Shown in pieces: positions 9,562-44,458 of a DNA stretch of 64,000 nucleotides. A model generated the notes under the pieces. That model was not told the origin of the DNA. It did not search any database and saw only the letters and a list, made by a program, of their open reading frames with translations. This DNA comes from Escherichia coli (lineage in GTDB: Bacteria; Pseudomonadota; Gammaproteobacteria; Enterobacterales; Enterobacteriaceae), in NCBI RefSeq assembly GCF_045037415.1, contig NZ_CP173438.1; one strand, written 5' to 3'. Made by a program: the position numbers and the translations under genes. Every line of letters begins with the position of its first letter. Positions within the stretch are counted from its first letter, which is position 1.

Positions 9562-9619
9562 CACACTAATCCGTATCGCTTTCGTTATAGAAGCCGATGA
9601 TTATTTGATTGTGAGAAAA

Positions 9620-9652
9620 AGGACGCTTTTTATATGTGATTAAAAGCGTCCT
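9620..9652. terminator. inverted repeat between convergent yoaH and yoaC (AGGACGCTTTT / AAAAGCGTCCT, 11-nt loop); possible bidirectional terminator
   Basis: Perfect 11-bp inverted repeat in the 120-bp convergent gap; no clean U-tract, so functional assignment is tentative. Confidence 0.3.
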
Positions 9653-9680
9653 GACCCATTTATGCTGATGTGAATTTAAC

Positions 9681-9980
9681 TCAAACCAGTGCTTTTAGTT
9701 CTTCCTGCATATATGTTGAAAAGTATTCAGGATTTTTAATCACAGAGCGTTCACCAGACTCCATTTTTTTTGCCCATCCAACCATTTTTTCCGTGAAACC
9801 AGGGTTCCAGCCTTCCTGGTCAGCTCGCGCCGTAATATCAGCGGCACTCGCGGGTACTCCCAGTTCTTTTAAATATTTAAAGATTCCCTTCGCCGTACTT
9901 TCATTCATCGAACTTGGTGTTGGCGCTGATACATCCATGGCACCAATGAAATCCAGGGCTTTATCTATTACAGCAGGCAT
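9681..9980 (-). CDS. yoaC: DUF1889 family protein
   Basis: ORF 9681-10004; K-12-length product (99 aa) begins MPAVIDKALDFIGAMDVSAPTPSSMNESTAKGIFKYLKELG... Confidence 0.9.
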   Translation of the reverse strand: MPAVIDKALDFIGAMDVSAPTPSSMNESTAKGIFKYLKELGVPASAADITARADQEGWNPGFTEKMVGWAKKMESGERSVIKNPEYFSTYMQEELKALV

Positions 9981-10401
9981 ATTCTTATCCTTAAAATTAA
10001 CCATGTTATCGATAAGGCTATATATGACCTTAATTTGTATCTAATATCAAAGGGATTATAACGATATGGCACGAGTTAACCTATTGACATTCAGGTGTTT
10101 TAAAGGTAGCAGCTCATGGTGTGTTATCCAGTAAGATGGAGAAAATTAATGGTCAGTCCTCACGCTATAACCAGATTGTTCAGGTAAGAAAGAAAACCAG
10201 AGATGCTAATCGAAGGGCGAACATAACGGCATGATTATGTTTATTTATATAGTTAGTTTTATAGATAAAATTGAAATTATAAAAATAAATAATGAATTAG
10301 CAGGAGCATCAACTGTAATATCTTAATCTCTGGTCGATTTTTGCAAAACCGACCAGTATTGTCGATAAATTATCGTCTGACTTATTTTGCTTCGATAAAG
10401 C

Positions 10402-10746
10402 TTACACCGCAGCCACAATCTTAATTTCAACTTTATACTTCGGGTTCATCAAACCTGCTTGTACCGTGCAGCGCACCGGCGCATGACCCGCGACAACCCA
10501 GGCATCCCACGCTTTATTCATCGCCGCGAAGTCGTTTTTATCGGCCAGGAAAATGGTGGCATCCAGAATGCTCGATTTATTGCTGCCCTGTTTTTCCAGC
10601 ACGGCGTCAATCTGCGCCAGCGTGTTGGCGGTTTGCTCAAAGGCATCGGCGTCGAGGTTTTCCGGTACACCAGTGTAGTAGAGCGTGTTGTTGTGGATTA
10701 CCACATCAGACCAGCGGGCTTCGGCATCGATACGAACGATAGTCAT
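10402..10746 (-). CDS. yoaB: RidA/YjgF-family protein
   Basis: ORF 10402-10794; K-12-length product (114 aa) begins MTIVRIDAEARWSDVVIHNNTLYYTGVPENLDADAFEQ...; GAGGA upstream. Confidence 0.9.
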   Translation of the reverse strand: MTIVRIDAEARWSDVVIHNNTLYYTGVPENLDADAFEQTANTLAQIDAVLEKQGSNKSSILDATIFLADKNDFAAMNKAWDAWVVAGHAPVRCTVQAGLMNPKYKVEIKIVAAV

Positions 10747-17332: not shown

Positions 17333-17665
17333 TTGAGCTTAACGCCAAATGCGCTCGACACCACGACGAGTAAATACCGATTCCTGAATGACGACTTCAT
17401 TCTCTGTTCCTTCATTCACTCTACCGCCTGGCGAGGAATATTCGCCTTCGGTGTTTTTCCGGACCACGTAAAAATCGATGTCGCCAGGCTGTTTCCCGCC
17501 AGTGGTCATTTAGTACAAGTGCTACCGGAATATTACCAGCCAGCGAATGTCTGGGCCGTTTATGTTTCAAAGCTGTCGACGTCAGCGAAAGTGCGGATAA
17601 CGGTAGAATTTTTACGCCAGTATTTTGCCGAGCACTACCCGAATTTTTCACTGGAGCATGCCTGA
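17333..17665 (+). pseudogene. 3'-terminal fragment of a LysR-family regulator gene (dmlR/yeaT-like remnant)
   Basis: 110-codon ORF whose C-terminal two-thirds ([60 protein letters not shown]) has the layout of a LysR effector-domain C-terminus; frame closed by TGA at 17324-17326; no N-terminal HTH domain; sits where K-12 has dmlR upstream of leuE. Confidence 0.4.
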
Positions 17666-19810: not shown

Positions 19811-20836
19811 TCAGGAATGTAGCGCTGAATGCGTGACAAAAGGTGTTTTCTGTTTATGTTTTTTCTCCTGATACATCGCGATATCGGCAGCATGCAGGGC
19901 ACTGTCTGCATCGGTCGTTTCAGGATCGACTTCTACTATGCCAAGACTGGCACCAGGATAATACAAATCAACATCACCTAAGTGATATTCTCCGCGTATT
20001 TGTTGTTGAATACGTTCTCGCAGCGACGAAATATCCGCATTCTCGTTGTTCAGTGAAACAACCAAAAACTCATCACCGCCGAGACGACCAATAACTTCGC
20101 CATTTTGCTGGAGCGTATTAAGGCGCTCGCCAACCTGAATGAGAAACAGATCGCCACTATTATGACCAAAACGATCATTGATTAATTTGAAGTTATCCAG
20201 ATCGATAAACGCGATCATTATCTTATGGTTAAGATGCCGGGCGAGAGAAAACAGCGTCGTCAGATTTTCAAAAATCGCCCGCCGATTCGGTAGCCCGGTT
20301 AACGAGTCGGTATACGATTGCGCAATCAGCGCAGCATTAGCTTCGCGCAGCTGTTCAACCAGTGCCTCTTTTTGAATATATTGTGCAATCAGTCCGGCGA
20401 ATAACTGTAAGACCTGTTCCGCGCGTTCACTCCACTGGCGCTTCTCACTGCTGGCGGCGCAAAGCGTGCCATAGAATGATCCATCCGGTAAGTGAATTGG
20501 CGTGCTCAGAAATGTGGTGATGCCAAGATTGCGTGCCGCAATACAGTCGCCCCAACGGTCGGGGACTTCATCGCTGAAAAAACAGTTTTCATCAATGGCG
20601 CGTTTGCATAACGAGTAATCCCACGAGACGGTAAAATTCTCCGGGATGTGCATTTTCTGGCTATTACGGGCAAACATTATATGCTGCAGGCGCGCTTCGA
20701 CATCCACTTTGGTCAGGTAGGTTGACTCCATATCAGTGACCATTTCCAGCATCTCCAGAAGCTGTCGAACCAGACTTTCCAGTGACTGTTCTTTGGCAAG
20801 GGATTGCGAGACGCGGGCGATAATCTGATCTGACAC
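19811..20836 (-). CDS. dgcP: diguanylate cyclase with N-terminal GAF domain
   Basis: ORF 19811-20965; K-12-length product (341 aa) starts at GTG 20836 (SDQIIARVSQSLAKEQSLESL...); intact RLGGDEFLVVS GGDEF motif. Confidence 0.9.
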   Translation of the reverse strand: MSDQIIARVSQSLAKEQSLESLVRQLLEMLEMVTDMESTYLTKVDVEARLQHIMFARNSQKMHIPENFTVSWDYSLCKRAIDENCFFSDEVPDRWGDCIAARNLGITTFLSTPIHLPDGSFYGTLCAASSEKRQWSERAEQVLQLFAGLIAQYIQKEALVEQLREANAALIAQSYTDSLTGLPNRRAIFENLTTLFSLARHLNHKIMIAFIDLDNFKLINDRFGHNSGDLFLIQVGERLNTLQQNGEVIGRLGGDEFLVVSLNNENADISSLRERIQQQIRGEYHLGDVDLYYPGASLGIVEVDPETTDADSALHAADIAMYQEKKHKQKTPFVTHSALHS

Positions 20837-22974: not shown

Positions 22975-23796
22975 ATGATGCACAGGTTGAATCTCAATGG
23001 CTATGAACCCGACCGACACCATGAAGCCGCGGTCGCATTTTGTATTCACGCCGGAACGGATGAGTTAACCAGTCCTGTACATCAGCACCGCAAAGGGCAG
23101 TTGATACTGGCACTACATGGTGCAATTACCTGTACGGTAGAAAATGCTTTGTGGATGGTGCCGCCACAATATGCGGTTTGGATACCGGGCGGGGTGAAAC
23201 ATAGTAATCAAGTGACAGCTAACGCCGAACTCTGTTTTCTGTTTATCGAGCCCAGCGCAGTGACAATGCCGACAACATGTTGCACATTGAAAATATCGCC
23301 CTTATGCCGGGAATTAATTTTAACCCTGGCAAACAGGACGACGACTCAGCGTGCTGAGCCGATGACCCGCAGATTAATTCAGGTCCTGTTTGATGAACTC
23401 CCTCAGCAACCACAACAACAGCTGCACTTGCCCGGTTCTTCTCATCCTAAAATCCGCACGATGGTGGAGATGATGGCGAAAGAGCCCGTCGAGTGGGGCT
23501 CATTGAGGCAATGGGCTGGCTTTTTTGCGATGAGTGAACGCAATCTTGCCCGGCTGATAGTGAAAGAGACGGGGTTGAGTTTTCGCCAGTGGCGTCAGCA
23601 GTTACAGCTGATTATGGCGCTTCAGGGATTAGTGAAAGGCGATACTGTACAGAAAGTTGCTCATACACTGGGGTATGATTCAACAACGGCCTTTATTACT
23701 ATGTTTAAGAAAGGCCTGGGGCAAACGCCAGGCCGATATATTGCGGGATTAACTACTGTTTCCCCACAATCAGCGAAACCAGACCCGCGGCAATAA
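22975..23796 (+). CDS. yeaM: AraC-family transcriptional regulator (NimR)
   Basis: 273-aa [52 protein letters not shown]...; C-terminal AraC HTH; divergent from yeaN. Confidence 0.93.
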
Positions 23797-24199
23797 GCGG
23801 GCCAACCGGTACGCCGCGAAACAGCGCCACGCCTAAAACAGTGCCCACCAGCAGCCCGGCGACCAGTTGCGGCTGGCTGCCCATTAACGTCACGCCGCGC
23901 CCCCCCAGCCAGGAGACAATAACGCCGACTGCAATTGCCACCAGCGATTTCCAGTTCAGAAACGAGTGAATCAGGGTTGAGGGCGGTAGCGTCCCGCTGG
24001 CGATGGGGGCCATAACGCCAATCGTCAGAATGATTATCCCGATACTTAGCCCCTGTTTTTCAATCCACGGGAAAAAGGTGCTTAACGGTGTGACGCGGAC
24101 AATAATCAACACCAGAATTGAAACGGCGACAGTGGTGTTATGACTGATAAAGCCCAGCGCAGCTAACCCGAGCAGGATCAGCAAAGTGACATCAAACAT
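23753..24199 (-). CDS. yeaL: UPF0756 inner-membrane protein
   Basis: 148-aa [54 protein letters not shown]...; 3' end overlaps yeaM 3' end by 44 bp. Confidence 0.92.
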
Positions 24200-24300
24200 C
24201 GTGGTTTCCTTGCCAAAAAATAATAAGCCTGCTTACTTTACGCTTGCTGCAGGCAGGAAGTAGAAAATCTTTACGTTTTTTGCATAAAAAATCAGACGAA

Positions 24301-24318
24301 CTGTCATCAAACTGCCAT
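24301..24318 (+). promoter_or_regulatory. Pho box (PhoB binding site) upstream of yoaI: CTGTCAT-CAAA-CTGCCAT
   Basis: Two direct 7-bp repeats spaced 4 bp, matching the Pho-box consensus CTGTCAT-N4-CTGTCAT at 13/14 positions, about 50 bp upstream of the yoaI ATG. Confidence 0.5.
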
Positions 24319-24368
24319 TTGTGTACGTTAACAATAACGTGAAAACAGCTATCTCCCGGGGGCATACT

Positions 24369-24473
24369 ATGAACGATCAAATGTTCGTCGAGACACTGAT
24401 TATCACGTCATCGTTTTTTGCCATTGCTGCTGTGCTGGTTTTGTCCGTTCTGCTTATTGAACGGACAGGCTAG
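24369..24473 (+). CDS. yoaI: small membrane protein YoaI, 34 aa
   Basis: Not in ORF track. ATG 24369 to TAG 24471-24473 translates [34 protein letters not shown]; single predicted TM helix. Confidence 0.8.
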
Positions 24474-24977
24474 TTACGCAGTGCGGCGGAAATTGACCAG
24501 TTCTGGTTGCGCAATACGCAAATAATCCGCGGTTTTCAAAATAACGGATTTATCCAGCATGCCTGCATTGAAGGCGATTTCATCAAATCGTTCGAAGAGT
24601 AGGGGGTCGGCAACCAGTTTGAGTTTTGGATGGAAGCTGAAAGGGGGGATCGCGCCGAAGACACAGCCTGTGAGTTCATCGACTTCCGCCGGGCTGGCCA
24701 ACGAAGCGCGTAATCCGCCTATATGGCTGGCGAGTTGGCTCAGATCGGCCTGTTGATCGGCAGCGAGGATCGCCAGAACATGTTGATTTACGCCATTGCC
24801 TTTGACTTTACATACCAGTGCCTTAGCCCCCTGGCCTAAAGCGGTGCCACGAATTTCTGACACTGCTTCACATTTACCTACCGCTTCATGGGTAACGACG
24901 CGGAAGTTAGCACCTTCTTGTGATAATAAAGCGATTAACCGCTGATGCGTCACGCTTCCTTTAGCCATTTCAGTCAT
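24474..24977 (-). CDS. yeaK: YbaK-family mischarged aminoacyl-tRNA deacylase
   Basis: 167-aa ORF MTEMAKGSVTHQRLIALLSQEGANFRVVTHEAVGKCEAVSEIRGTALGQG...; its stop codon abuts the yoaI stop. Confidence 0.93.
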   Translation of the reverse strand: MTEMAKGSVTHQRLIALLSQEGANFRVVTHEAVGKCEAVSEIRGTALGQGAKALVCKVKGNGVNQHVLAILAADQQADLSQLASHIGGLRASLASPAEVDELTGCVFGAIPPFSFHPKLKLVADPLLFERFDEIAFNAGMLDKSVILKTADYLRIAQPELVNFRRTA

Positions 24978-25019
24978 TTCATGCTCCTGAGATTACAAGC
25001 AAACAACCACAGAAGGTTA

Positions 25020-26510
25020 TCATGAACGGCTGTTTTTGTTCTGCTTATTGACATATAAACGCTCATCGGAAGCTTTATACGCATCATGTAACGTATCGTT
25101 TTCTTTCATCGCGTAAATACCGGAAGAGAAGCCGATCTCTTTCTGCGGCGCGATATGTTGCAGACGTTTTTCGATACGTTCAGGCAGTTGTGCTGCAATT
25201 TGCGGCGTCGAATCGACAAGAATGATGCAGAATTCATCGCCACCGAGTCGGATGGCATAATCACTTTTACGAATCGACTGTTTAATCGCCTGAGCTAATA
25301 ACGTAATCGCTAAATCCCCCTCCTGATGACCGAGGGTGTCATTTATTTGCTTTAACTTGTCCATGTCAATAGCAATAAACATCACCGAAGAACCGGATTG
25401 CACCAGTTTCTGCAACCGCTGCTCCAGTTCAGGGGTTAAAATTTTGCGATTATAGAGTCCAGTCATCGCATCACTAATATTTTCTCGCGACACATTTTGG
25501 TATAAGCGGAAGTGCATCCGCACCATATTCAGCAAAATTAACGCCGTCAAAATCCAGAACAGAACGCTTTTCCACGAAGACGTGATAAAGTAAAGAATAT
25601 CAATGGATAACGAGACACGAATGCCGCCCGGTAAGTCATGGACGTAACTGACATACTGGAACAGATTATCTTCGCTCTGGTTGATGATAATGTCGCGCCC
25701 CGAATCTGTATCGGTTAGCGTGACATTGAGAAAACGCCAGAGGAGAGGGCGGTCATGAGTGTAAAAGATATTCCGCAGATTGTTTTTGTTAATATCCAGC
25801 AGCACAATCCCTTTTAGCTGCCCTGCGACATATACCGGCGTCAGCAAACTCATCACGTTCTGTTTAGTACGCTGATCCTGGTAAATGCTCGATAATACGG
25901 TACGCCCGGTAAATACTTTTTCAATATCTTTGCGATCGATACCAATACTTCCTGATTGCAGGAAGGACCAGTTATTCATCGCAAAGTATTCAACATTAAC
26001 CGGCTCATAAAAATAGACATAGCGGTCATTGAGATCGAGATAATAGTGAAATTTCTCTTCGGCCATCCCAAGACCTGAACCGTAATCATCCTGGTGGCGG
26101 TTGCCTTCCACTGCCTGATCAAAAGCGGGTAATAGTGCTGCAGCTTCCACAATTGTGTCGCAGTCAGTGGATGCGGTTTGTAGTGTGCCGCGTAAGCCCT
26201 GGTATTTATGAGCAGTCAGGTTTAAGCCATGGGTATTATTGGCAGACTCAAAAGCCTCGCAGATAGCGCGCCGTTGTTCTGGCGGTACTTCCGACTGCTC
26301 AGCAGCGAGAGCGCGCATCACATGCGCGGCAATACTCTGATTCTGATACTTATCATAAAGAAAGGAAGAGTCTGCTCTCTGCACGATATAGCGCAGATAG
26401 GCACTCATTGCTCTGTCGCTGGCGACAAGTTCAAAAATAAGGAAGGAAGATGTCAGCACAATGACACTTGCGGCGATAAAATGCCGGAGCATTCTATGGT
26501 GCAATTTCAT
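25020..26510 (-). CDS. dgcJ: membrane-bound diguanylate cyclase
   Basis: ORF 25020-26690; K-12-length product (496 aa) begins MKLHHRMLRHFIAASVIVLTSSFLIFELVAS...; intact AIRLGGDEFCIILVD GGDEF motif. Confidence 0.9.
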   Translation of the reverse strand: MKLHHRMLRHFIAASVIVLTSSFLIFELVASDRAMSAYLRYIVQRADSSFLYDKYQNQSIAAHVMRALAAEQSEVPPEQRRAICEAFESANNTHGLNLTAHKYQGLRGTLQTASTDCDTIVEAAALLPAFDQAVEGNRHQDDYGSGLGMAEEKFHYYLDLNDRYVYFYEPVNVEYFAMNNWSFLQSGSIGIDRKDIEKVFTGRTVLSSIYQDQRTKQNVMSLLTPVYVAGQLKGIVLLDINKNNLRNIFYTHDRPLLWRFLNVTLTDTDSGRDIIINQSEDNLFQYVSYVHDLPGGIRVSLSIDILYFITSSWKSVLFWILTALILLNMVRMHFRLYQNVSRENISDAMTGLYNRKILTPELEQRLQKLVQSGSSVMFIAIDMDKLKQINDTLGHQEGDLAITLLAQAIKQSIRKSDYAIRLGGDEFCIILVDSTPQIAAQLPERIEKRLQHIAPQKEIGFSSGIYAMKENDTLHDAYKASDERLYVNKQNKNSRS

Positions 26511-26690
26511 GATAAATGGCACTCCTTCGGTTAGTGAAACGAGAAAACCAGATAAAGTTCGATTGCGGCCTGGCACAGGGGCGCTAATTATACTCATCTC
26601 TGCGCCGCTGGGGAGGGGAAATTTAGGGGTAATAGTAATAAATTGTATGCAAAAGCCACGCAAAAAGCATGGCTGTGAATATTTTTGCAC

Positions 26691-28166
26691 TTAAATATGA
26701 TGAATAATCACTTTGTTGCCCCCCTCGCTTTTCGCTTCGCGTAAGGCTTTATCTGCTTCCGTCATGACAAGCGAGATATTATGCGTGTCACCCGTTGAAA
26801 AAACCGTGCCAATACTGATGGTCATTTGTTCAGGAACATCATATCTGTTACTAAAGCCGGTCAGGAGTTCGACATTTTTACGCATACGTTCCGCAATGAT
26901 TTTTGCCTGGGCACTATTGAGTTCGGTAAATAGCAAGCCAAACACCTCACCCTCCAGTCGCGCTAAAATATCATCGGGGCGGATGCTTTGCTGGATAATA
27001 TCGACAATTGATACCAGCACTTTATCACCCACACGATGTCCCCATTGGGCATTGATGCGTTTGAACTGATTAATATCAACCAGCATGACACAAAAGTCCT
27101 TAACAACAGGTCGCGACAATAATGACTCTACGCTGTTGAAAAAGTAGCGCCGATTATAAATATTGGTCAGCACATCATGAACTGCCAGTTTGCTGGAGAG
27201 TTGCAGTTCCTGAAAAATGTTATAAATCAGAAAAGACACAACAAACAGTTTACTGGAAACTTCAATCCCGCGACTGATATACCAGATGGTGTAATTATAC
27301 TCATCCAGAGTCAGTAGAAGTAAGTTGCAGCATAGCGATGCCAGACATAATAATGCTATTAACGGCCATAGTTCGCTGGCTAATCGTGTACGCATGATAA
27401 TAAAGAACAGTAAAAATGCCCACAAACAAACCAATATTTTTGTATAGTTGATTCCCCAGGTCGCAGTATGGTTGTCCGGGCAGTAATCGACGACATACAA
27501 AGAATAGTCAGCGTTATAACTGCTCAGATTGTGTGCCAGAAGGGGAAAAACTAAAAAAGGAATCAGCGCCAGCAACAGAATGCCAGTTTTTTTCTTATTG
27601 TTGTCAAGGATGTTGTCTTTCCCATAACAAAAGAGCGCCAGCGAGGTTAAACAAATGAAACTGAGTTGGCGGAAAATATAGAAAATAGAAACATCATTCG
27701 ACTTTGTCTGGATCAGTGTACTGCCGTTGATTGGTTTATGGATAATTACAATGGTTTCAACTAAATAGATAAGGCCACTTAAAAATGCAAGGCTTAAAAT
27801 GAGTGTTGGTAAAATTTGTTTGTTAGTGAAATACTTCATTAACATGAAAAGAAAAATGACGGCGTTAAGGAAAAACAAAGCCACAACAACCATCAGGTAA
27901 TTCATCTGTGGGATGAGTTTTACATTCGTGTTTTCGTTATATAAGGTAGTAATGCAAAATAAAATTAACGTCAGCAATAAGCTGAAAATAAAAAAGCCTT
28001 GAGCTTTTAATTTTTGTGTACCCATAGAAGCCATAAAAAGGAGAGCAATGTGAGTGCTGGATTTTATTGATGGCAGAGATATATAGTTTTGACCAAGATC
28101 AATTTTCGTTAACGATAAAAAATAATTAAAGAATAACCCCAGGGAAATACGTGTTGACCGAATCAT
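26691..28166 (-). CDS. dgcI: membrane GGDEF-domain protein with degenerate active-site motif (EGEVF)
   Basis: 491-aa ORF recognised as YeaI; N-terminal multi-TM region, C-terminal GGDEF fold with ...ILARLEGEVFGLLF...; coding sequence is conspicuously AT-rich. Confidence 0.9.
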   Translation of the reverse strand: MIRSTRISLGLFFNYFLSLTKIDLGQNYISLPSIKSSTHIALLFMASMGTQKLKAQGFFIFSLLLTLILFCITTLYNENTNVKLIPQMNYLMVVVALFFLNAVIFLFMLMKYFTNKQILPTLILSLAFLSGLIYLVETIVIIHKPINGSTLIQTKSNDVSIFYIFRQLSFICLTSLALFCYGKDNILDNNKKKTGILLLALIPFLVFPLLAHNLSSYNADYSLYVVDYCPDNHTATWGINYTKILVCLWAFLLFFIIMRTRLASELWPLIALLCLASLCCNLLLLTLDEYNYTIWYISRGIEVSSKLFVVSFLIYNIFQELQLSSKLAVHDVLTNIYNRRYFFNSVESLLSRPVVKDFCVMLVDINQFKRINAQWGHRVGDKVLVSIVDIIQQSIRPDDILARLEGEVFGLLFTELNSAQAKIIAERMRKNVELLTGFSNRYDVPEQMTISIGTVFSTGDTHNISLVMTEADKALREAKSEGGNKVIIHHI

Positions 28167-28312
28167 TTTTCCGAATGATTGTTTTCTGGAACTAAATTGT
28201 GTAAAGGTTATGCTGTCATATTTAAAGCGATTGTAAGCTAATGTATGTAATAAAAGAGATAATTTACAGTGAGCTAAAAATCAGCCAGGCGATAATGACC
28301 CGGCTGACAGTT

Positions 28313-29608
<1,296 letters not shown>

Positions 29609-29676
29609 CTACATTTGCCAACGGTATGCTACGCTTGTGTTGCCGCTTCTCTGGCCCACGGTTCGCTGTCGTTGTA

Positions 29677-29701
29677 GGCCCGGTAGCATGTGTACCGGGC
29701 C
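29677..29701 (-). other. intercistronic stem-loop between yeaG and yeaH (GGCCCGGTA-GCATGTG-TACCGGGCC)
   Basis: Perfect 9-bp GC-rich inverted repeat in the 112-bp yeaG-yeaH spacer; possible RNA processing/stability element or attenuator. Confidence 0.3.
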
Positions 29702-29708
29702 AGGGTTG

Positions 29709-31643
29709 TTAAGACGATTTACGTACGCGCAAATACCATTCGCACAGTAAACGCACCTGTTTACGGGTGTAGCCTTTTTCCATCATACGGTCGACAAAGT
29801 CGTCGTGTTTCTTCTGCTCGTCGGTTGACGTTTTGGCGTTAAACGAAATAACCGGCAACAGCTCTTCGGTATTGGAGAACATTTTCTTCTCGATAACCGT
29901 GCGCAGTTTTTCATAGCTGGTCCAGTTCGGATTGCGTCCGCTGTTATTCGCTCTGGCTCGCAGTACGAAGTTAACAATCTCGTTGCGGAAATCTTTTGGA
30001 TTACTGATCCCCGCCGGTTTCTCGATTTTCTCCAGCTCGGCGTTAAGAGACTCGCGGTCAAACAGCTGCCCGGTATCCGGATCGCGATACTCCTGATCCT
30101 GAATCCAGAAATCCGCGTAGGTAACATAACGGTCGAAAATGTTTTGCCCATATTCTGAATAGGATTCAAGGTAGGCCGTCTGGATCTCTTTGCCGATAAA
30201 CTCGGCATATTTCGGGATCAGATAACCTTTCAGGAACTCCAGATAGCGTTCAGCCTGCTCTTGCGGGAACTGCTCGCGCTCGATCTGCTGTTCCAGGACG
30301 TAGAACAGATGGACCGGGTTTGCCGCCACTTCTACATGATCGAAGTTGAACACGCGGGAGAGGATCTTAAACGCAAAACGCGTCGACAGACCGTTCATCC
30401 CTTCATCGACACCGGCGTAGTCACGATATTCCTGATACGACTTGGCTTTGGGATCAGTGTCTTTCAGACTTTCACCATCATAAACGCGCATCTTTGAATA
30501 AATGCTGGAGTTTTCTGGCTCTTTCAGACGCGAAAGAATAGAAAAACGTGACAGCGTTTCCAGCGTGCCAGGGGCGCAGGGGGCGTGAGTCAATTCACTG
30601 TGATTAAGCAATTTCTCGTAGATTTTGATCTCTTCGGAAATGCGCAAGCAATACGGCACCTTCACGATGTAAACACGGTCGAGGAAGGCTTCGTTGTTTT
30701 TGTTATTACGGAAAGTGACCCATTCGGATTCGTTCGAGTGGGCGAGAATAATCCCGTTGAACGGCAGGGCGGAGATACCTTCCGTCCCGTTGTAGTTACC
30801 TTCCTGGGTGGCGGTTAACAAGGGATGCAGCACTTTTATCGGTGCTTTAAACATCTCGACAAATTCCATGATCCCCTGATTGGCGCGGCACAGCGCACCG
30901 GAATAGCCGTAGGCGTCCGGGTCATTCTGCGCGTAGTGTTCGAGTTTACGAATATCGACTTTCCCTACCAGGGCGGAGATGTCCTGGTTGTTCTCATCTC
31001 CGGGTTCCGTTTTGGCGATGGCAATTTGTTGCAGAATTGACGGCCAGACCTTCACTACCCGGAACTTAGTGATATCGCCACCAAATTCATGCAGGCGCTT
31101 TGCCGCCCACGGCGACATGATGGTGCCGAGATAACGGCGAGGAATGCCGTACTCTTTTTCCAGAATCTGCGCATCTTCCTGCGGATTGAAAAGACAGAAC
31201 GGATGATCGTTGACCGGGCTACGCTCACCGTTGGCGCTCAATACATAAATCGGTACGAGCTGCATTAATGATTTCAGTCGCTCAGCAAGTGATGATTTAC
31301 CCCCACCCACAGGCCCCAGCAGATACAGAATTTGTTTCTTCTCTTCCAGCCCCTGAGCCGCGTGTTTCAGATAAGAAACAATCTGTTCAATCGCGTCTTC
31401 CATGCCGTAAAACTCTTCAAACGCCGGATAACGTGCAATGACCCGGTTAGAAAAGAGTCGAGAAAGTCTGGGTTCCTGGGCTGTATCGACCATGACAGGC
31501 TCACCAATAGCCATCAATAGCCGCTCAGCCGCGTTGGCATAAGCACTGCGATCTTGCCGACAAGTGGTAAGAAACTCCTGCAGTGTGAACTCTTCGTCCT
31601 TGGCAGCTTCATATCGCTGGCGATAGTGATCGAATATATTCAT
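29709..31643 (-). CDS. yeaG: PrkA-family serine protein kinase
   Basis: 644-aa ORF MNIFDHYRQRYEAAKDEEFTLQEFLTTCRQDRSAYANAAERLLMAIGEP...; Walker A-like LLGPVGGGKSSLAERL. Confidence 0.95.
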   Translation of the reverse strand: MNIFDHYRQRYEAAKDEEFTLQEFLTTCRQDRSAYANAAERLLMAIGEPVMVDTAQEPRLSRLFSNRVIARYPAFEEFYGMEDAIEQIVSYLKHAAQGLEEKKQILYLLGPVGGGKSSLAERLKSLMQLVPIYVLSANGERSPVNDHPFCLFNPQEDAQILEKEYGIPRRYLGTIMSPWAAKRLHEFGGDITKFRVVKVWPSILQQIAIAKTEPGDENNQDISALVGKVDIRKLEHYAQNDPDAYGYSGALCRANQGIMEFVEMFKAPIKVLHPLLTATQEGNYNGTEGISALPFNGIILAHSNESEWVTFRNNKNNEAFLDRVYIVKVPYCLRISEEIKIYEKLLNHSELTHAPCAPGTLETLSRFSILSRLKEPENSSIYSKMRVYDGESLKDTDPKAKSYQEYRDYAGVDEGMNGLSTRFAFKILSRVFNFDHVEVAANPVHLFYVLEQQIEREQFPQEQAERYLEFLKGYLIPKYAEFIGKEIQTAYLESYSEYGQNIFDRYVTYADFWIQDQEYRDPDTGQLFDRESLNAELEKIEKPAGISNPKDFRNEIVNFVLRARANNSGRNPNWTSYEKLRTVIEKKMFSNTEELLPVISFNAKTSTDEQKKHDDFVDRMMEKGYTRKQVRLLCEWYLRVRKSS

Positions 31644-32078
31644 GGTATGCCGTCCTTTCGTTTTTTAGCACAGGTTAAGAGCCGTTCATATGAATAGTAG
31701 AGGCTCCCGGAAGAGGTAAACTGAACGACGTCTCTTGCTAAAACACAGCAACTCTCATGCCATTTTATTGACGATGAGAACAACGTGCCCGGTGATACAC
31801 CTTCAAAATTAAGCGTAGATGGCAAATGGAAAACTTGCCTGCACGGCTTTCTTAATTTCAATGGCATATCAACAACTCATCCATAAATTTTGCATAATTA
31901 ATGTAAATAATAGGGTCGCCGGTAACGCTAAATTCATTTGGCTGTAAGCGTGGTGTCATCTGCGTCAGGAAAATTAAACAGTTACTATAAAAAATGAAAA
32001 CGTAAAAAGGTTGGGTTTCGATGTATTGACGGGTAAACTTTGTCGCCCGCTAAACATTTGTTTAAGGAATGATTAATT

Positions 32079-32825
32079 GTGACCAAACTCAAACTTCTGG
32101 CACTTGGAGTGCTTATCGCAACGTCTGCAGGCGTAGCGCACGCTGAAGGTAAATTTTCCCTGGGCGCAGGCGTAGGTGTCGTTGAACACCCATATAAAGA
32201 TTACGATACCGATGTTTACCCAGTACCGGTAATCAACTATGAAGGCGATAACTTCTGGTTCCGTGGCTTAGGTGGTGGTTACTACCTGTGGAATGACGCG
32301 ACGGACAAACTTTCAATTACCGCTTACTGGTCGCCGCTTTACTTCAAAGCTAAAGACAGTGGCGATCACCAAATGCGTCACCTCGATGACCGTAAGAGCA
32401 CCATGATGGCTGGTCTGTCTTATGCTCACTTTACCCAGTACGGTTACCTGCGTACCACCCTGGCTGGCGATACCCTGGATAACAGCAACGGCATCGTCTG
32501 GGATATGGCCTGGTTGTATCGTTACACCAACGGTGGCCTGACCGTGACTCCGGGTATTGGTGTGCAGTGGAACAGCGAAAACCAGAACGAATACTATTAT
32601 GGCGTATCGCGCAAAGAGTCCGCTCGCAGCGGTCTGCGTGGCTATAACCCGAACGACAGCTGGAGCCCTTACCTGGAGCTGAGCGCCAGCTACAACTTCC
32701 TCGGCGACTGGAGTGTTTACGGTACCGCGCGCTACACCCGTCTGTCTGATGAAGTTACTGACAGCCCAATGGTGGATAAATCCTGGACTGGCCTGATTTC
32801 TACCGGGATCACCTACAAATTCTGA
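32079..32825 (+). CDS. mipA: MltA-interacting outer-membrane protein
   Basis: 248-aa ORF with signal peptide MTKLKLLALGVLIATSAGVAHAEGKFSLGAGVGVVEHPYKDYDTDVYP...; C-terminal YKF. Confidence 0.94.
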   Translation: MTKLKLLALGVLIATSAGVAHAEGKFSLGAGVGVVEHPYKDYDTDVYPVPVINYEGDNFWFRGLGGGYYLWNDATDKLSITAYWSPLYFKAKDSGDHQMRHLDDRKSTMMAGLSYAHFTQYGYLRTTLAGDTLDNSNGIVWDMAWLYRYTNGGLTVTPGIGVQWNSENQNEYYYGVSRKESARSGLRGYNPNDSWSPYLELSASYNFLGDWSVYGTARYTRLSDEVTDSPMVDKSWTGLISTGITYKF

Positions 32826-40784: not shown

Positions 40785-41621
40785 ATGCTCGCAGATATCA
40801 GATATTGGGAAAACGATGCCACAAATAAACATTATGCAATTGCCCATTTTAACGTATGGAATGCAGAAATGTTGATGGGCGTTATCGACGCAGCCGAAGA
40901 AGCGAAATCACCGGTTATTATTTCTTTTGGCACAGGTTTTGTCGGCAACACCTCATTTGAAGATTTCTCTCACATGATGGTATCAATGGCACAAAAAGCA
41001 ACGGTGCCGGTAATAACTCATTGGGATCATGGTCGGAGTATGGAGATTATTCATAACGCCTGGACTCATGGTATGAATTCATTAATGCGTGATGCTTCTG
41101 CATTTGATTTCGAAGAAAATATTCGTTTAACCAAAGAGGCTGTTGATTTCTTCCATCCGCTGGGTATTCCGGTAGAGGCGGAATTAGGGCATGTCGGTAA
41201 TGAAACCGTTTATGAGGAAGCGCTGGCAGGCTATCACTATACCGATCCTGACCAGGCGGCTGAATTTGTTGAACGTACGGGCTGTGACTCATTGGCTGTC
41301 GCCATCGGCAACCAGCATGGGGTTTATACGTCAGAGCCACAATTGAACTTTGAGGTCGTCAAACGCGTACGCGATGCTGTTTCTGTTCCGCTGGTTTTGC
41401 ATGGCGCATCAGGGATCAGTGATGCCGACATTAAAACTGCAATTTCGTTGGGTATTGCGAAAATCAACATTCATACGGAGCTCTGTCAGGCCGCAATGGT
41501 AGCAGTGAAAGAAAACCAGGATCAGCCTTTCCTGCATTTAGAACGTGAAGTGCGTAAAGCTATAAAAGAACGGGCATTGGATAAAATTAAACTGTTCGGT
41601 TCTGATGGCAAAGCGGAATAA
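40785..41621 (+). CDS. ydjI: class II (metal-dependent) ketose-bisphosphate aldolase family protein
   Basis: 278-aa ORF MLADIRYWENDATNKHYAIAHFNVWNAEMLMGVIDAAEEAKSPVIISF... Confidence 0.93.
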   Translation: MLADIRYWENDATNKHYAIAHFNVWNAEMLMGVIDAAEEAKSPVIISFGTGFVGNTSFEDFSHMMVSMAQKATVPVITHWDHGRSMEIIHNAWTHGMNSLMRDASAFDFEENIRLTKEAVDFFHPLGIPVEAELGHVGNETVYEEALAGYHYTDPDQAAEFVERTGCDSLAVAIGNQHGVYTSEPQLNFEVVKRVRDAVSVPLVLHGASGISDADIKTAISLGIAKINIHTELCQAAMVAVKENQDQPFLHLEREVRKAIKERALDKIKLFGSDGKAE

Positions 41622-41625
41622 TAAT

Positions 41626-42573
41626 ATGGATAATCTCGACGTTATTTGTATAGGTGCCGCTATTGTTGATATTCCATTGCAACCGGTCAGTAAAAATATC
41701 TTTGATGTGGATTCTTATCCTCTTGAAAGAATCGCAATGACCACCGGGGGTGATGCAATAAATGAAGCAACAATTATTTCTCGTCTGGGCCATCGCACAG
41801 CATTAATGAGTCGTATTGGTAAAGATGCCGCAGGGCAATTTATTCTCGACCATTGCCGCAAAGAGAATATTGATATTCAAAGCCTGAAGCAGGACGTCAG
41901 CATAGATACCTCTATTAACGTTGGACTGGTGACGGAGGATGGCGAGCGGACCTTTGTCACAAACCGTAACGGCAGTCTGTGGAAATTGAATATTGACGAT
42001 GTTGATTTTGCGCGGTTTTCTCAGGCGAAATTATTATCACTGGCCAGTATTTTCAACAGTCCTCTATTGGATGGTCGAGCGCTAACAGAAATTTTTACGC
42101 AAGCTAAAACCCGGCAGATGATTATCTGTGCCGATATGATCAAACCGCGGTTGAATGAAACGCTGAATGATATTTGCGAAGCATTGAGTTATGTCGATTA
42201 TCTGTTTCCTAATTTTGCCGAGGCAAAATTACTCACCGGGAAAGAGACACTGGATGAAATTGCTGACTGCTTTCTTGCGTGCGGCGTAAAAACGGTGGTG
42301 ATTAAAACGGGTAAAGACGGCTGCTTTATCAAGCGTGGTGACATGACGATGAAGGTGCCGGCGGTCGCAGGAATAACCGCTATCGACACCATTGGTGCGG
42401 GCGATAACTTTGCTTCAGGTTTTATTGCAGCACTGTTAGAAGGCAAAAATCTGCGAGAATGCGCACGCTTTGCCAATGCAACGGCGGCTATCTCGGTTCT
42501 AAGCATCGGCGCCACCACCGGTGTAAAAAACAGAAAGCTGGTCGAACAATTGCTGGAAGAATACGAAGGATAA
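41626..42573 (+). CDS. ydjH: PfkB-family sugar kinase
   Basis: ORF 41605-42573; K-12-length product (315 aa) begins MDNLDVICIGAAIVDIPLQP...; C-terminal GAGDNF motif. Confidence 0.92.
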   Translation: MDNLDVICIGAAIVDIPLQPVSKNIFDVDSYPLERIAMTTGGDAINEATIISRLGHRTALMSRIGKDAAGQFILDHCRKENIDIQSLKQDVSIDTSINVGLVTEDGERTFVTNRNGSLWKLNIDDVDFARFSQAKLLSLASIFNSPLLDGRALTEIFTQAKTRQMIICADMIKPRLNETLNDICEALSYVDYLFPNFAEAKLLTGKETLDEIADCFLACGVKTVVIKTGKDGCFIKRGDMTMKVPAVAGITAIDTIGAGDNFASGFIAALLEGKNLRECARFANATAAISVLSIGATTGVKNRKLVEQLLEEYEG

Positions 42574-42582
42574 TGAAGGCAA

Positions 42583-43563
42583 ATGAAAAAGATACCTTTA
42601 GGCACAGCGGATATAACGCTTTCGCGAATGGGGTTGGGTACATGGGCTATTGGCGGCGGTCCTGCATGGAATGGCGATCTCGATCGACAAATATGCATTG
42701 ATACGATTCTTGAAGCCCATCGTTGCGGCATTAACCTGATTGATACTGCGCCAGGATATAACTTTGGCAATAGTGAAGTTATCGTTGGTCAGGCGTTAAA
42801 AAAACTGCCCCGTGAACAGGTTGTAGTAGAAACCAAATGCGGCATTGTCTGGGAACGAAAAGGAAGTTTATTCAACAAAGTTGGCGATCGGCAGTTGTAT
42901 AAAAACCTTTCTCCGGAATCTATCCGCGAAGAGGTAGAAGCCAGCTTGCAACGTCTGGGTATTGATTACATCGATATCTACATGACGCACTGGCAGTCGG
43001 TGCCGCCATTTTTTACGCCGATAGCTGAAACTGTTGCAGTGCTTAATGCGTTAAAGGCCGAAGGGAAAATTCGCGCTATAGGCGCTGCTAACGTCGATGC
43101 TGACCATATCCGCGAGTATCTGCAACATGGTGAACTGGATATTATTCAGGCGAAATACAGTATTCTCGACCGGGCGATGGAAAACGAACTGCTGCCGCTA
43201 TGTCGTGATAATGGCATTGTGGTTCAGGTTTATTCCCCGCTAGAGCAGGGATTGTTGACCGGCACCATCACGCGTGATTACGTTCCGGGCGGCGCTCGGG
43301 CAAATAAAGTCTGGTTCCAGCGTGAAAACATGCTGAAAGTGATTGATATGCTTGAACAGTGGCAGCCACTCTGTGCTCGTTATCAGTGCACAATTCCCAC
43401 TCTGGCACTGGCGTGGATATTAAAACAGAGTGATTTAATCTCCATTCTTAGTGGGGCTACTGCGCCGGAACAGGTACGTGAAAATGTCGCGGCACTGAAT
43501 ATCAACTTATCGGATGCAGACGCAACATTGATGAGGGAAATGGCAGAGGCCCTGGAGCGTTAA
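42583..43563 (+). CDS. ydjG: aldo-keto reductase (NADH-dependent)
   Basis: 326-aa ORF MKKIPLGTADITLSRMGLGTWAIGGGPAWNGDLDRQICIDTILEAHR... Confidence 0.93.
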   Translation: MKKIPLGTADITLSRMGLGTWAIGGGPAWNGDLDRQICIDTILEAHRCGINLIDTAPGYNFGNSEVIVGQALKKLPREQVVVETKCGIVWERKGSLFNKVGDRQLYKNLSPESIREEVEASLQRLGIDYIDIYMTHWQSVPPFFTPIAETVAVLNALKAEGKIRAIGAANVDADHIREYLQHGELDIIQAKYSILDRAMENELLPLCRDNGIVVQVYSPLEQGLLTGTITRDYVPGGARANKVWFQRENMLKVIDMLEQWQPLCARYQCTIPTLALAWILKQSDLISILSGATAPEQVRENVAALNINLSDADATLMREMAEALER

Positions 43564-43699
43564 ATACTCAACACGATTCACCTCTGTTTCTGTGAAAACT
43601 GTGATGAAAATCTGTGATTCAAACAGGTTATTTTGAAAGTAAACATCGGTTATGCGATAATTGCGCTAATGTGATGTAAAAAGATACAGGGGTGTAATC

Positions 43700-44458
43700 G
43701 TGGCGGCAAAAGACAGGATTCAGGCAATTAAGCAAATGGTTGCCAACGATAAAAAGGTGACAGTCTCAAATTTGAGTGGGATTTTTCAGGTAACCGAAGA
43801 AACCATTCGCCGCGATCTTGAGAAGTTGGAAGATGAAGGCTTTTTGACCAGAACCTATGGTGGTGCTGTTTTAAATACAGCGATGTTGACGGAGAATATC
43901 CATTTTTATAAGCGCGCTTCATCGTTTTATGAAGAGAAGCAGCTTATTGCACGCAAGGCACTACCCTTTGTCGACAATAAAACCACCATGGCAGCCGATT
44001 CCAGTAGTACCGTAATGGAATTGCTCAAATTGTTACAGGACCGTAGTGACCTGACGTTGCTAACCAACTCGGCGGAAGCGATTCATGTTCTGGCTCAGTC
44101 AGAAATTAAAGTCGTTTCAACGGGTGGGGAACTAAACAAAAATACACTTTCACTGCAAGGAAGAATTACTAAAGAGATCATCAGCCGCTACCATGTCGAT
44201 ATCATGGTAATGAGTTGTAAAGGTCTTGATATTAACAGCGGCGCGCTGGACTCTAATGAAGCGGAAGCTGAAATCAAAAAGACAATGATCCGTCAGGCGA
44301 CAGAAGTTGCGTTATTGGTTGATCACTCTAAGTTTGATCGCAAAGCTTTTGTCCAGTTAGCTGACTTTAGTCATATTAATTACATAATAACTGATAAATC
44401 ACCGGGTGCAGAGTGGATAGCATTTTGCAAAGACAATAATATCCAGCTGGTGTGGTAA
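43700..44458 (+). CDS. ydjF: DeoR-family transcriptional regulator
   Basis: 252-aa ORF, GTG start; MAAKDRIQAIKQMVANDKKVTVSNLSGIFQVTEETIRRDLEKLEDEGFLTRTYGGAV...; N-terminal HTH, C-terminal sugar-binding domain. Confidence 0.93.
   Translation: MAAKDRIQAIKQMVANDKKVTVSNLSGIFQVTEETIRRDLEKLEDEGFLTRTYGGAVLNTAMLTENIHFYKRASSFYEEKQLIARKALPFVDNKTTMAADSSSTVMELLKLLQDRSDLTLLTNSAEAIHVLAQSEIKVVSTGGELNKNTLSLQGRITKEIISRYHVDIMVMSCKGLDINSGALDSNEAEAEIKKTMIRQATEVALLVDHSKFDRKAFVQLADFSHINYIITDKSPGAEWIAFCKDNNIQLVW

Follow-up and report, generated by a model that had tools for sequence, protein, structure and literature searches.

The window, a 64,000-nucleotide stretch of Escherichia coli DNA, contains cdgI (yeaI), a core chromosomal gene whose degenerate GGDEF protein most likely makes no c-di-GMP. 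We consider the following account, taken as a whole, very probable: CdgI would be an inactive protein that binds c-di-GMP at its I-site, and its AT-rich, H-NS-bound gene would have arrived long ago and lost its A-site on the Escherichia branch. The gene, its degenerate motif, its binding of c-di-GMP and its AT-rich, H-NS-bound 5' region have all been published already, and the discovery value of the analysis is therefore small. We lean toward two further readings, a shortened ORF and a lineage-specific conversion of a cyclase into a sensor, both of which may be absent from the literature.

Four genes with GGDEF or EAL domains are found in the window:

26691 to 28166, minus strand: annotated cdgI (yeaI) ORF, 491 amino acids (ORF list, and RefSeq annotation of a 100%-identical strain)
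25020 to 26510, minus strand: dgcJ, GAPES1 and GGDEF domains, motif RLGGDEF, downstream neighbor of cdgI (annotation and domains)
19811 to 20836, minus strand: dgcP, GAF and GGDEF domains, motif RLGGDEF (annotation and domains)
4088 to 5686, minus strand: pdeD, CSS-motif and EAL domains (domains)

A reading made earlier from the sequence alone had named these same four genes, and all are confirmed with the domains and motifs it gave. It had also described yeaI, at 26691-28166, as a degenerate GGDEF gene, which is borne out by the ORF, the motif and the Pfam domains. Only 0.40 such genes are expected in 64 kb (29 per K-12 genome). The Poisson probability of four is 7.8e-4 per window, or about 0.06 after multiplication by 72 non-overlapping windows, and the clustering is suggestive. 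Because the GGDEF domains of CdgI, DgcJ and DgcP are just 27-31% identical in pairwise comparison, recent tandem duplication of the three genes is rejected.

The window sequence at cdgI is 100% identical to E. coli chromosomes, and 5424 of 5426 complete E. coli genomes carry the gene. The gene order is yeaG-yeaH-cdgI-dgcJ-yeaK. K-12 CdgI (YeaI, b1785) likewise lies between yeaH and dgcJ, carries the EGEVF motif and the RPDD I-site, and matches the window protein at 484 of 491 residues. This near-identity and the position between yeaH and dgcJ assign the locus to the cdgI orthologue group.

The A-site and I-site of CdgI

The protein consists of a membrane sensor domain followed by a GGDEF domain:

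27210 to 27905, minus strand: MASE4 integral-membrane sensor domain, residues 88-319 (Pfam PF17158, E = 1.2e-48)
26712 to 27185, minus strand: degenerate GGDEF domain, residues 328-485 (Pfam PF00990, E = 9e-45)
26970 to 26981, minus strand: I-site RPDD (R396xxD399), five residues upstream of the A-site (sequence and alignment)
26940 to 26954, minus strand: degenerate A-site EGEVF in place of GG[D/E]EF, residues 405-409 (sequence)

Membership in both families is clear. The MASE4 match scores 166 bits against a cut-off of 28.4 and includes several hydrophobic 19-residue segments. The GGDEF match scores 152.8 bits against a curated cut-off of 23.8, TIGR00254 is matched at 122.7 against 37.4, and the domain can be aligned to solved diguanylate cyclases.

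The intact GG[D/E]EF of active cyclases is not present. In the minus-strand 491-amino-acid ORF the motif stands in the context ...ILARLEGEVFGLLF..., with the first Gly replaced by Glu and the fourth residue, Glu, by Val. When CdgI residues are mapped onto PleD by alignment (offset 37), E405 takes the place of G368, V408 of E371, G483 of R446 and A373 of D336. Thus, K479 is kept from the K442/R446 pair of PleD, and both R446 and D336 are replaced. The published yeaI signature, KNAHDREGEVF, agrees with these substitutions. Other cyclase residues (D364, K369, N372, D381, E407 and K479) are all kept, including E407, which corresponds to metal-binding E370 of PleD, as well as N372 and D381, which contact guanine. 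By contrast with the A-site, the I-site has the expected RxxD five residues before the A-site, and R427 is kept too. R396 and D399 are invariant across a 15-sequence alignment; the sole exception seen is HPDD (R396H) in lineage L002.

With its A-site broken (EGEVF, and loss of the phosphate-binding Arg of GRN) and its I-site RxxD kept, CdgI most likely makes no c-di-GMP. The retained E407, N372 and D381 would be compatible with some remaining activity or with binding of GTP. Sarenko et al. 2017 (PMC5635695) also described CdgI as having a degenerate A-site and an intact I-site, and found that the purified GGDEF domain binds c-di-GMP (their Fig. S4B). In the same study CdgI made heteromeric GGDEF contacts in two-hybrid assays and was toxic when overexpressed. 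These data support two earlier suggestions from the sequence, namely that YeaI is probably catalytically impaired (EGEVF) and that it may be a c-di-GMP receptor. CdgI would therefore bind c-di-GMP at its I-site, as published, without synthesizing it. Its physiologic role might be that of a c-di-GMP-responsive adaptor or inhibitor that contacts other GGDEF domains.

It is nevertheless conceivable, if very unlikely, that CdgI has remained a functional diguanylate cyclase despite EGEVF, and that published phenotypes reflect c-di-GMP synthesis. Sanchez-Torres 2011, as cited in PMC3484386 and PMC6824119, is credited with "verified" activity, that is, with YeaI raising cellular c-di-GMP as an active cyclase in vivo. 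In strain CFT073, the biofilm defect of a yeaI mutant was complemented by the WspR cyclase in LB without salt, and the cyclase residues listed above are retained. However, WspR failed to complement in glycerol medium, and both Sarenko 2017 (PMC5635695) and Cimdins-Ahne 2023 regard the protein as catalytically inactive. The three substitutions G368E, E371V and R446G (PleD numbering) affect residues that catalysis or phosphate binding requires. Moreover, the motif reads EGEVF, EGEEF, EGNVF, EGKRF, DGEVF or EGDVF over Escherichia lineages, so that positions 1 (E/D), 3 (E/N/K/D) and 4 (V/E/R) vary freely. An active site is unlikely because these positions drift while the rest of the domain stays under purifying selection.

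Degenerate GGDEF domains that serve as c-di-GMP receptors through an RxxD I-site are known from PelD of P. aeruginosa and PopA of Caulobacter. As in CdgI, an inactive A-site is combined with a retained I-site that is used to sense c-di-GMP. PelD and PopA differ from CdgI in their N-terminal domains and outputs, and the output proposed for CdgI is binding to other GGDEF domains.

Orthologues and the history of the active site

A scan of the genome collection with CdgI peptides reached Escherichia only, and wider relatives were obtained from a protein search. Citrobacter-type genomes carry positional orthologues (P0020, P0024 and P0025) in the same slot and with the same flanks (yeaG-yeaH-[MASE4-GGDEF]-dgcJ-yeaK), at 57-61% identity to CdgI. 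Unlike CdgI, these proteins have intact GGEEF and ALYEAKxxGRN motifs and are presumably active cyclases. Their genes have a GC content of 37-38%, versus 51-60% in neighboring genes. Because orthologues with intact GGEEF occupy the same slot and are equally AT-rich, the gene is old at this position, and any acquisition predates the divergence of Escherichia and Citrobacter.

E. albertii, E. whittamii and the cryptic clades also have the gene in this slot, as do Escherichia-like lineages farther away. Within Escherichia it is a core gene, whereas across genera its distribution is patchy and the slot is variable. A recent, E. coli-specific horizontal acquisition might be read from the low GC content and from compositional methods that flag the gene as foreign. 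We give this possibility almost no credence and reject it, as it is contradicted by synteny: the 5424 genomes, the occupied slot in other Escherichia and Escherichia-like lineages, and the Citrobacter-type genomes with the same flanks all speak against it, as do silent sites that are largely ameliorated.

The broken motif, the frequent IS insertions and truncated alleles, and expression too low to detect (PMC5635695) could also be taken to mean that cdgI is a functionless, decaying pseudogene. Such disrupted alleles are common, which indicates that some backgrounds tolerate loss of the gene. However, dN/dS between Escherichia clades is 0.04-0.11 in both domains (dS up to 0.7), an intact ORF was seen in each of the eight Escherichia-type lineages examined, the I-site is conserved, and deletion phenotypes of yeaI have been published. 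The pseudogene interpretation is rejected on dN/dS and is very unlikely.

Comparison of these sequences indicates instead that the active site has decayed on the Escherichia branch while the gene was under purifying selection. The ancestor would have had the intact GGEEF still present in Citrobacter-type orthologues. Loss of the first Gly would have come first, on the Escherichia branch, and drift at motif positions 3 and 4 would have followed, with purifying selection holding the I-site and the remainder of the protein. CdgI may thus represent a lineage-specific conversion of an intact MASE4 cyclase into a non-catalytic c-di-GMP sensor. If so, the Citrobacter GGEEF orthologue and the degenerate Escherichia protein form a natural experiment in the passage from cyclase to receptor.

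The active E. coli cyclases DgcT (YcdT) and DgcX have the same MASE4 and GGDEF arrangement as CdgI, are about 40% identical to it and are likewise encoded by AT-rich genes. Both retain GGEEF and the arginine of GRN, whereas CdgI is degenerate and chromosomally fixed. A DgcX-like copy is prophage-associated and, at 29% GC, far more AT-rich than cdgI.

AT-richness and H-NS

The GC content of cdgI is 38.8%, compared with 49.8% for the 64-kb window (z = -3.0). Only 1% of 1476-nt windows are equally low, and the gene ranks last in GC among the 47 genes of the window (z = -3.2 versus the other 46). The 5' part, 27200-28166, is at 36.2% (z = -3.4). At segment sizes of 300 and 500 nt, GC is lowest over the 64 kb in the segments that begin at 27976 and 27751, in cdgI or across its 5' edge. 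By region, GC is 32.6% in codons 1-87, 37.4% in the MASE4 part and 44.2% in residues 320-491. The visual impression that yeaI, and especially its 5' membrane half, is far more AT-rich than its neighbors is therefore correct, and the gene lies well beyond one standard deviation of the window mean. The most AT-rich 141 nt of the annotated coding sequence (28026-28166), however, are probably non-coding.

Much of this AT-richness lies in the protein. CdgI is rich in Phe, Tyr, Met, Ile, Asn and Lys and poor in Gly, Ala, Arg and Pro. From its amino acid sequence a GC content of 42.5% would be expected, whereas 38.8% is observed and 50% is typical, so that amino acid composition accounts for about two-thirds of the deficit. 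By codon position, z is -2.95 for GC1, -2.3 for GC2 and -1.4 for GC3. GC at fourfold sites is 0.51 in the membrane part and 0.64 in the GGDEF part, compared with 0.56-0.79 in neighboring genes and 0.25 in the DgcX-like paralogue. A dip in GC3 at codons 51-125, past Met48, is seen in Escherichia lineages but not in Citrobacter, and might mark selection at the DNA level.

It is possible, although we think it improbable, that the AT-richness is a mere by-product of membrane-protein composition, unrelated to foreign origin or H-NS. The two-thirds share of the deficit, a GC3 just 1.4 SD low and native fourfold GC in the GGDEF half fit such an explanation. However, GC is normal for other polytopic membrane proteins encoded in the window (nimT 52.9%, yeaL 55.9%, manY 51.9% and ydjK 49.2%), and the membrane half has an additional synonymous deficit (GC3 of 0.42 versus 0.54 expected). 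The patchy distribution at a variable slot, the mobile paralogue at 29% GC and published ChIP data that place H-NS over this stretch also argue against it. We therefore favor a mainly protein-level AT-richness with a smaller synonymous shift in the membrane half. Such a pattern would fit an AT-rich MASE4-GGDEF gene that arrived long ago, before the Escherichia/Citrobacter split, and whose silent sites have since been largely ameliorated. We infer a horizontal origin from composition and patchy distribution.

The H-NS-bound segment is as follows:

27738 to 28041, no strand assigned: H-NS-bound "promoter island" of yeaI, 304 bp (approximate mapping from K-12 U00096.2 coordinate 1868534)

As a check of the coordinate offset, the SrsR gSELEX peak at 1,868,366 lands on the box at 28203-28213. 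Panyukov and Ozoline 2013 (PMC3661553) include yeaI, which is AT-rich, H-NS-occupied and poorly transcribed, among 78 listed islands. Their Table 1 gives the 304-bp island as H-NS-bound in all ChIP studies considered, and yeaI as foreign according to GIST, Nakamura 2004 and Lawrence & Ochman 1998. The island overlaps the GC minimum of the window. Typical islands lie in recent genomic islands, whereas the yeaI island belongs to a core gene found species-wide and resident since before Escherichia and Citrobacter diverged. The suggestion of old acquisition or H-NS silencing thus gains from the published binding and foreign calls, but fourfold sites are near native.

CdgI protein is undetectable under standard conditions, and repression of cdgI by CsrA has been reported (PMC5635695). 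SrsR, RstA and AppY activate or bind cdgI (PMC9181523, PMC6824119 and PMC10057817). According to this literature, the gene would normally be silent through H-NS on the AT-rich 5' region and through CsrA, with SrsR, RstA and AppY as activating or binding factors.

Start codon and upstream region

The annotated start is probably 44-47 codons too far upstream, and the following features are proposed:

26691 to 28025, minus strand: probable real coding sequence from Met48, 444 amino acids (alternative start Met45 at 28034)
28026 to 28166, minus strand: annotated "N-terminal extension," codons 1-47, likely conserved non-coding leader or regulatory DNA

Met48 is the probable start because the 44-47 codons at the annotated 5' end behave like DNA that is not translated. 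In the alignment every orthologue begins at the Met45 or Met48 position, and only Met48 is in frame throughout all six Escherichia lineages. A coding-type codon-position pattern and dN/dS are found only downstream of Met48. The extension has indels in lineages L005 and L006, an ATG that L004 and L006 have replaced by TTG or lost, and in-frame stops in L020 and L021. Its variable sites are spread 9/9/11 over the codon positions, with 16 amino-acid-changing versus 5 silent codons. Its dN/dS is 1.0-1.1 at a divergence of only about 0.13, compared with a dS of 0.65-0.73 in the gene body. Five of the seven amino acid differences between K-12 and the window fall within it, in the first 46 codons. 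E. coli variants of 466-469 amino acids carry internal in-frame deletions and do not represent alternative starts. The segment 28026-28166 may be a conserved non-coding leader or a landing pad for H-NS and regulators. A corrected start at Met48 is useful for expressing, tagging or modeling CdgI.

The 146-nt leader shows no conserved RNA structure: its fold has z = +0.86, a six-sequence consensus has 0 compensatory pairs, and an Rfam scan of 24000-32500 returned nothing at E <= 1. A riboswitch or other structured leader RNA is rejected on these three results. The leader contains a single GGA, at 28172, and multiple CsrA sites are not supported by the sequence; the published CsrA repression may be indirect.

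Three elements precede the annotated ORF:

28178 to 28205, minus strand: promoter-like TTTACA-16 nt-AACAAT upstream of cdgI (consensus scan 9/12, putative function)
28203 to 28213, minus strand: SrsR (YgfI) box, GCATAACCTTT, the reverse complement of AAAGGTTATGC (exact match in the window)
28280 to 28308, minus strand: intrinsic terminator-like hairpin and T-run past yeaH (11-pair stem, then TTTTT)

The box sequence, like the gSELEX peak, is from PMC9181523. Promoter-like sites of this kind are not more numerous in the region than expected by chance. All six Escherichia lineages have the same -35-like TTTACA, and five of them keep the element in full, the sixth, L006, having a different -10-like part. 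The terminator-like hairpin is conserved over Escherichia clades and sets yeaGH apart from cdgI.

AT-richness of the cdgI gene

The cdgI gene (yeaI) belongs to a minus-strand series annotated yeaG-yeaH-cdgI-dgcJ-yeaK-yeaL. The window derives from the E. coli chromosome: the segment 26000-29000 has matches in thousands of complete genomes, several of which are 100% identical to it, and the cdgI locus was found in 5424 of 5426 E. coli genomes, nearly always chromosomal.

26691-28166, minus strand: cdgI open reading frame, 491 aa, containing ...RPDDILARLEGEVFGLLF...

Pfam assigns MASE4 to residues 88-319 and GGDEF to residues 328-485; among NCBIfam models, only the generic GGDEF domain model scores above its cut-off.

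The sequence-only reading described this gene as unusually AT-rich, and windowed GC calculations agree: cdgI has 38.8% GC, whereas the window averages 49.8% (z = -3.0 for same-length windows; z = -3.2 relative to the remaining 46 genes). Across the 64 kb, GC is lowest in the 300-nt window beginning at 27976 and in the 500-nt window beginning at 27751, and both lie inside cdgI or span its 5' edge.

Composition of cdgI and its product
GC1: 0.42 (z = -2.95)
GC2: 0.31 (z = -2.3)
GC3: 0.44 (z = -1.4)
FYMINK residues: 35%, rank 2 from the top among 47 genes
GARP residues: 14.5%, lowest of the ten most FYMINK-rich genes listed
Fourfold-site GC, membrane half: 0.51 (neighbours 0.56-0.79)
Fourfold-site GC, GGDEF half: 0.64 (neighbours 0.56-0.79)

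Because the amino-acid sequence combined with window codon usage predicts 42.5% GC, compared with 38.8% observed and 50% typical, about two-thirds of the deficit reflects amino-acid composition and one-third synonymous choice, the latter mostly in the membrane half. Other membrane proteins of the window (nimT, yeaL, manY and ydjK) are encoded at 49-56% GC; thus, membrane-protein status is insufficient to explain the AT-richness.

Within yeaI, Panyukov and Ozoline (2013; PMC3661553) described a 304-bp promoter island that is H-NS-bound in every ChIP data set used; foreign origin of the gene was predicted by GIST, by Nakamura 2004, and by Lawrence and Ochman 1998. With the coordinate offset verified against the SrsR peak, the island falls at ~27738-28041, on the GC minimum. 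These data, together with syntenic Citrobacter-type orthologues, support the suggestion that yeaI may be an old acquisition or an H-NS-silenced gene.

After cdgI, GC in the window is lowest at 9600-10500 (34-39%), a stretch comprising yoaC (9681-9980) and the spacer between yoaC and yoaB; of the 47 genes, yoaC shows the greatest synonymous GC deficit (GC3 0.36 versus 0.52 expected). The ydj sugar-catabolism run ydjI, ydjH, ydjG and ydjF (40785-44458) is also below average, at 42-48% GC and GC3 0.41-0.47.

Active site and I-site of CdgI and its orthologues

CdgI was aligned to solved cyclases, with PleD chain 284-449 matching query residues 4-167 at a constant offset of 37; the functional roles of the PleD residues are textbook knowledge.

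CdgI residues, with PleD counterparts in parentheses
Kept: D364 (D327), K369 (K332), N372 (N335), H377, D381 (D344), R403 (R366), G406, E407 (E370), F409, K479 (K442)
Kept at the I-site: R396xxD399 (R359xxD362), R427 (R390)
Lost: E405 (G368), V408 (E371), G483 (R446), A373 (D336)

The degenerate EGEVF motif noted from sequence is real, with E405 and V408 at PleD G368 and E371, and the published signature KNAHDREGEVF agrees with this mapping (PMC3484386). Sarenko et al. 2017 (PMC5635695) likewise found the A-site degenerate and the I-site intact, and showed that the purified GGDEF domain binds c-di-GMP. Loss of A-site residues, retention of the I-site and this binding support a catalytically impaired protein that is a possible c-di-GMP receptor. 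In the same study, CdgI showed strong heteromeric interactions with other GGDEF domains, was toxic when overexpressed, was undetectable as protein and was repressed by CsrA; it was proposed to inhibit other GGDEF proteins, an inhibition that c-di-GMP would modulate. Cimdins-Ahne et al. 2023 (PMC10459773) group catalytically inactive YeaI with DgcX and YcdT as MASE4-GGDEF proteins. However, Sanchez-Torres 2011 is cited by others (PMC3484386, PMC6824119) as evidence that YeaI behaves in a cyclase-like manner, which conflicts with the inactive view.

R396 and D399 are invariant in a 15-sequence alignment. A single further genome, Escherichia sp. MOD1-EC7003 (locus L002), carries R396H, which changes RPDD to HPDD in a protein otherwise 97% identical; this may be a natural c-di-GMP-blind allele.

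Protein searches yielded a series of orthologues in which the degenerate motif drifts.

A-site motifs of the Escherichia-type proteins (P, related proteins; L, compared loci)
EGEVF: E. coli, P0012, L003, L004
EGEEF: P0007
EGNVF: E. albertii (P0010)
EGKRF: P0018 (64% identity)
DGEVF: L005
EGDVF: L006

Proteins at 57-61% identity (NCBI name Citrobacter sp.) retain GGEEF as well as ALYEAKxxGRN, which is replaced by ALREAKxxGGN in the degenerate branch. The GGEEF proteins are positional orthologues of CdgI, encoded on contigs with the order gapA-yeaD-(yeaE)-mipA-yeaG-yeaH-[MASE4-GGDEF]-dgcJ-yeaK-yeaL-nimR-nimT...dgcP. Their genes are as AT-rich as cdgI (37-38% GC versus 51-60% in neighbours; GC3 0.42-0.45 versus 0.56-0.68). 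When E. coli is compared with the Citrobacter type, CdgI (57-61% identity) is the fastest-evolving protein of the neighbourhood, followed by the fast-evolving DgcJ (63%), YeaH (94%) and YeaG (98%). Despite this, CdgI is under purifying selection, with dN/dS of 0.04-0.11 in both domains (dgcJ, 0.035; yeaH, 0.01; dS up to 0.7).

A DgcX-like MASE4-GGDEF paralogue in E. coli (locus L015, 5001-6332) has an intact GGEEF, adjoins prophage tail-fibre and Lom genes, and has 29% GC. Its fourfold-site GC is 0.25, compared with 0.51 and 0.64 in the two halves of cdgI. Taken together, these data describe an enteric MASE4-GGDEF family that is AT-rich and partly mobile. In this family, cdgI is probably a long-resident copy: its silent sites have by now largely ameliorated, and its AT-richness persists chiefly via protein sequence. 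Its A-site probably decayed after Escherichia split from the Citrobacter-type lineage.

The slot 3' of yeaH (L011, L012, L013 and L014) is variable across Enterobacteriaceae, with content differing by genus. In C. freundii a methyltransferase gene precedes dgcJ, in Intestinirhabdus yeaH leads directly to yeaK, and two further enteric contigs carry unrelated genes.

Truncated CdgI forms P0013 (345 aa), P0019 (295 aa) and P0023 (281 aa) represent clusters of 249-934 sequences, compared with 10,877 for the full-length cluster, and in E. coli R12 (L017, 1449-2146) cdgI is interrupted by IS1A close to the junction of MASE4 and GGDEF. Loss-of-function alleles appear common among natural E. coli.

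Both the sequence-only observation, which is confirmed, and its interpretation, which is supported, were already known. The points added here are incremental: the protein/silent-site split of AT-richness, syntenic orthologues that retain GGEEF, drift of the dead motif and a start that is probably mis-annotated.

The start codon and upstream region

Every orthologue outside E. coli proper has its annotated start at the position of Met45 or Met48, and the latter residue is nearly invariant. When DNA from six Escherichia lineages is aligned, codons 1-44 contain a 1-nt insertion in L005, and codon 1 is TTG in L004; L006 lacks ATG at codon 1 and has several indels, one of which falls between the two methionines. 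The more distant, syntenic L020 and L021 carry three in-frame stops in the codon 1-47 stretch.

In the four indel-free lineages, variable sites by codon position number 9/9/11 in this stretch (16 amino-acid-changing versus 5 silent codons), compared with 38/13/105 in codons 48-319 (40 versus 91). For codons 1-44, dN/dS is 1.0-1.1, and total divergence (~0.13) is much lower than synonymous divergence in the gene body (0.65-0.73), which points to constraint on DNA rather than on protein. Five of the seven differences between K-12 and window CdgI fall within the first 46 codons.

28308-28280, minus strand: putative yeaH terminator
28205-28178, minus strand: promoter-like element upstream of cdgI, with a -35-like hexamer identical in 6/6 lineages
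28026-28166, minus strand: first 44-47 annotated codons, which by these comparisons evolve like constrained non-coding DNA

The terminator and promoter-like element would place the transcription start beside the annotated ATG, which would argue against use of that ATG. The annotated start is probably wrong and the real start Met48 at 28025, making 26691-28025 (444 aa) the likely coding sequence. A search for a conserved RNA fold in the cdgI leader found none, and an Rfam search of the leader gave no match.

SrsR activates cdgI via a box (PMC9181523) located at 28203-28213 in the window, RstA binds the cdgI promoter in EHEC (PMC6824119), and cdgI is among listed AppY targets (PMC10057817). In E. 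coli FXCREC073 (L018, 2647-3627), IS5 has inserted between yeaH and cdgI, immediately upstream of the cdgI promoter region. Some H-NS-silenced genes become activated by IS5 insertions.

Other c-di-GMP genes and features of the window

The sequence-only reading named three further c-di-GMP genes besides yeaI, and all were found as described.

4088-5686, minus strand: pdeD, CSS-motif and EAL
19811-20836, minus strand: dgcP, GAF and GGDEF, motif RLGGDEF
25020-26510, minus strand: dgcJ, GAPES1 and GGDEF, motif RLGGDEF

Four such genes per 64 kb compare with 0.40 expected (nominal P = 7.8e-4, ~0.06 genome-wide). Aligned GGDEF domains within the cluster are 27-31% identical, which rules out recent duplication as its origin.

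The dgcJ gene also has low GC (45.5%). Its protein identity is uneven between lineages (83.6% to L021, 67.3% to L020), a hint of recombination or of sensor divergence in particular lineages. The longest dgcJ frame begins at GTG 26690, abutting the cdgI stop codon. The start at 26510 is annotated and profile-supported, the NCBIfam DgcJ model beginning at residue 64 of the long frame, and the 60 additional codons (26511-26690, minus strand) are probably spurious.

Between rnd and leuE, two annotated pseudogene fragments (17342-17665; tartrate dehydrogenase and a LysR regulator) indicate a deletion relative to strains with intact genes. The convergent nimR (plus strand) and yeaL (minus strand) overlap by 44 nt at their 3' ends (23753-23796).
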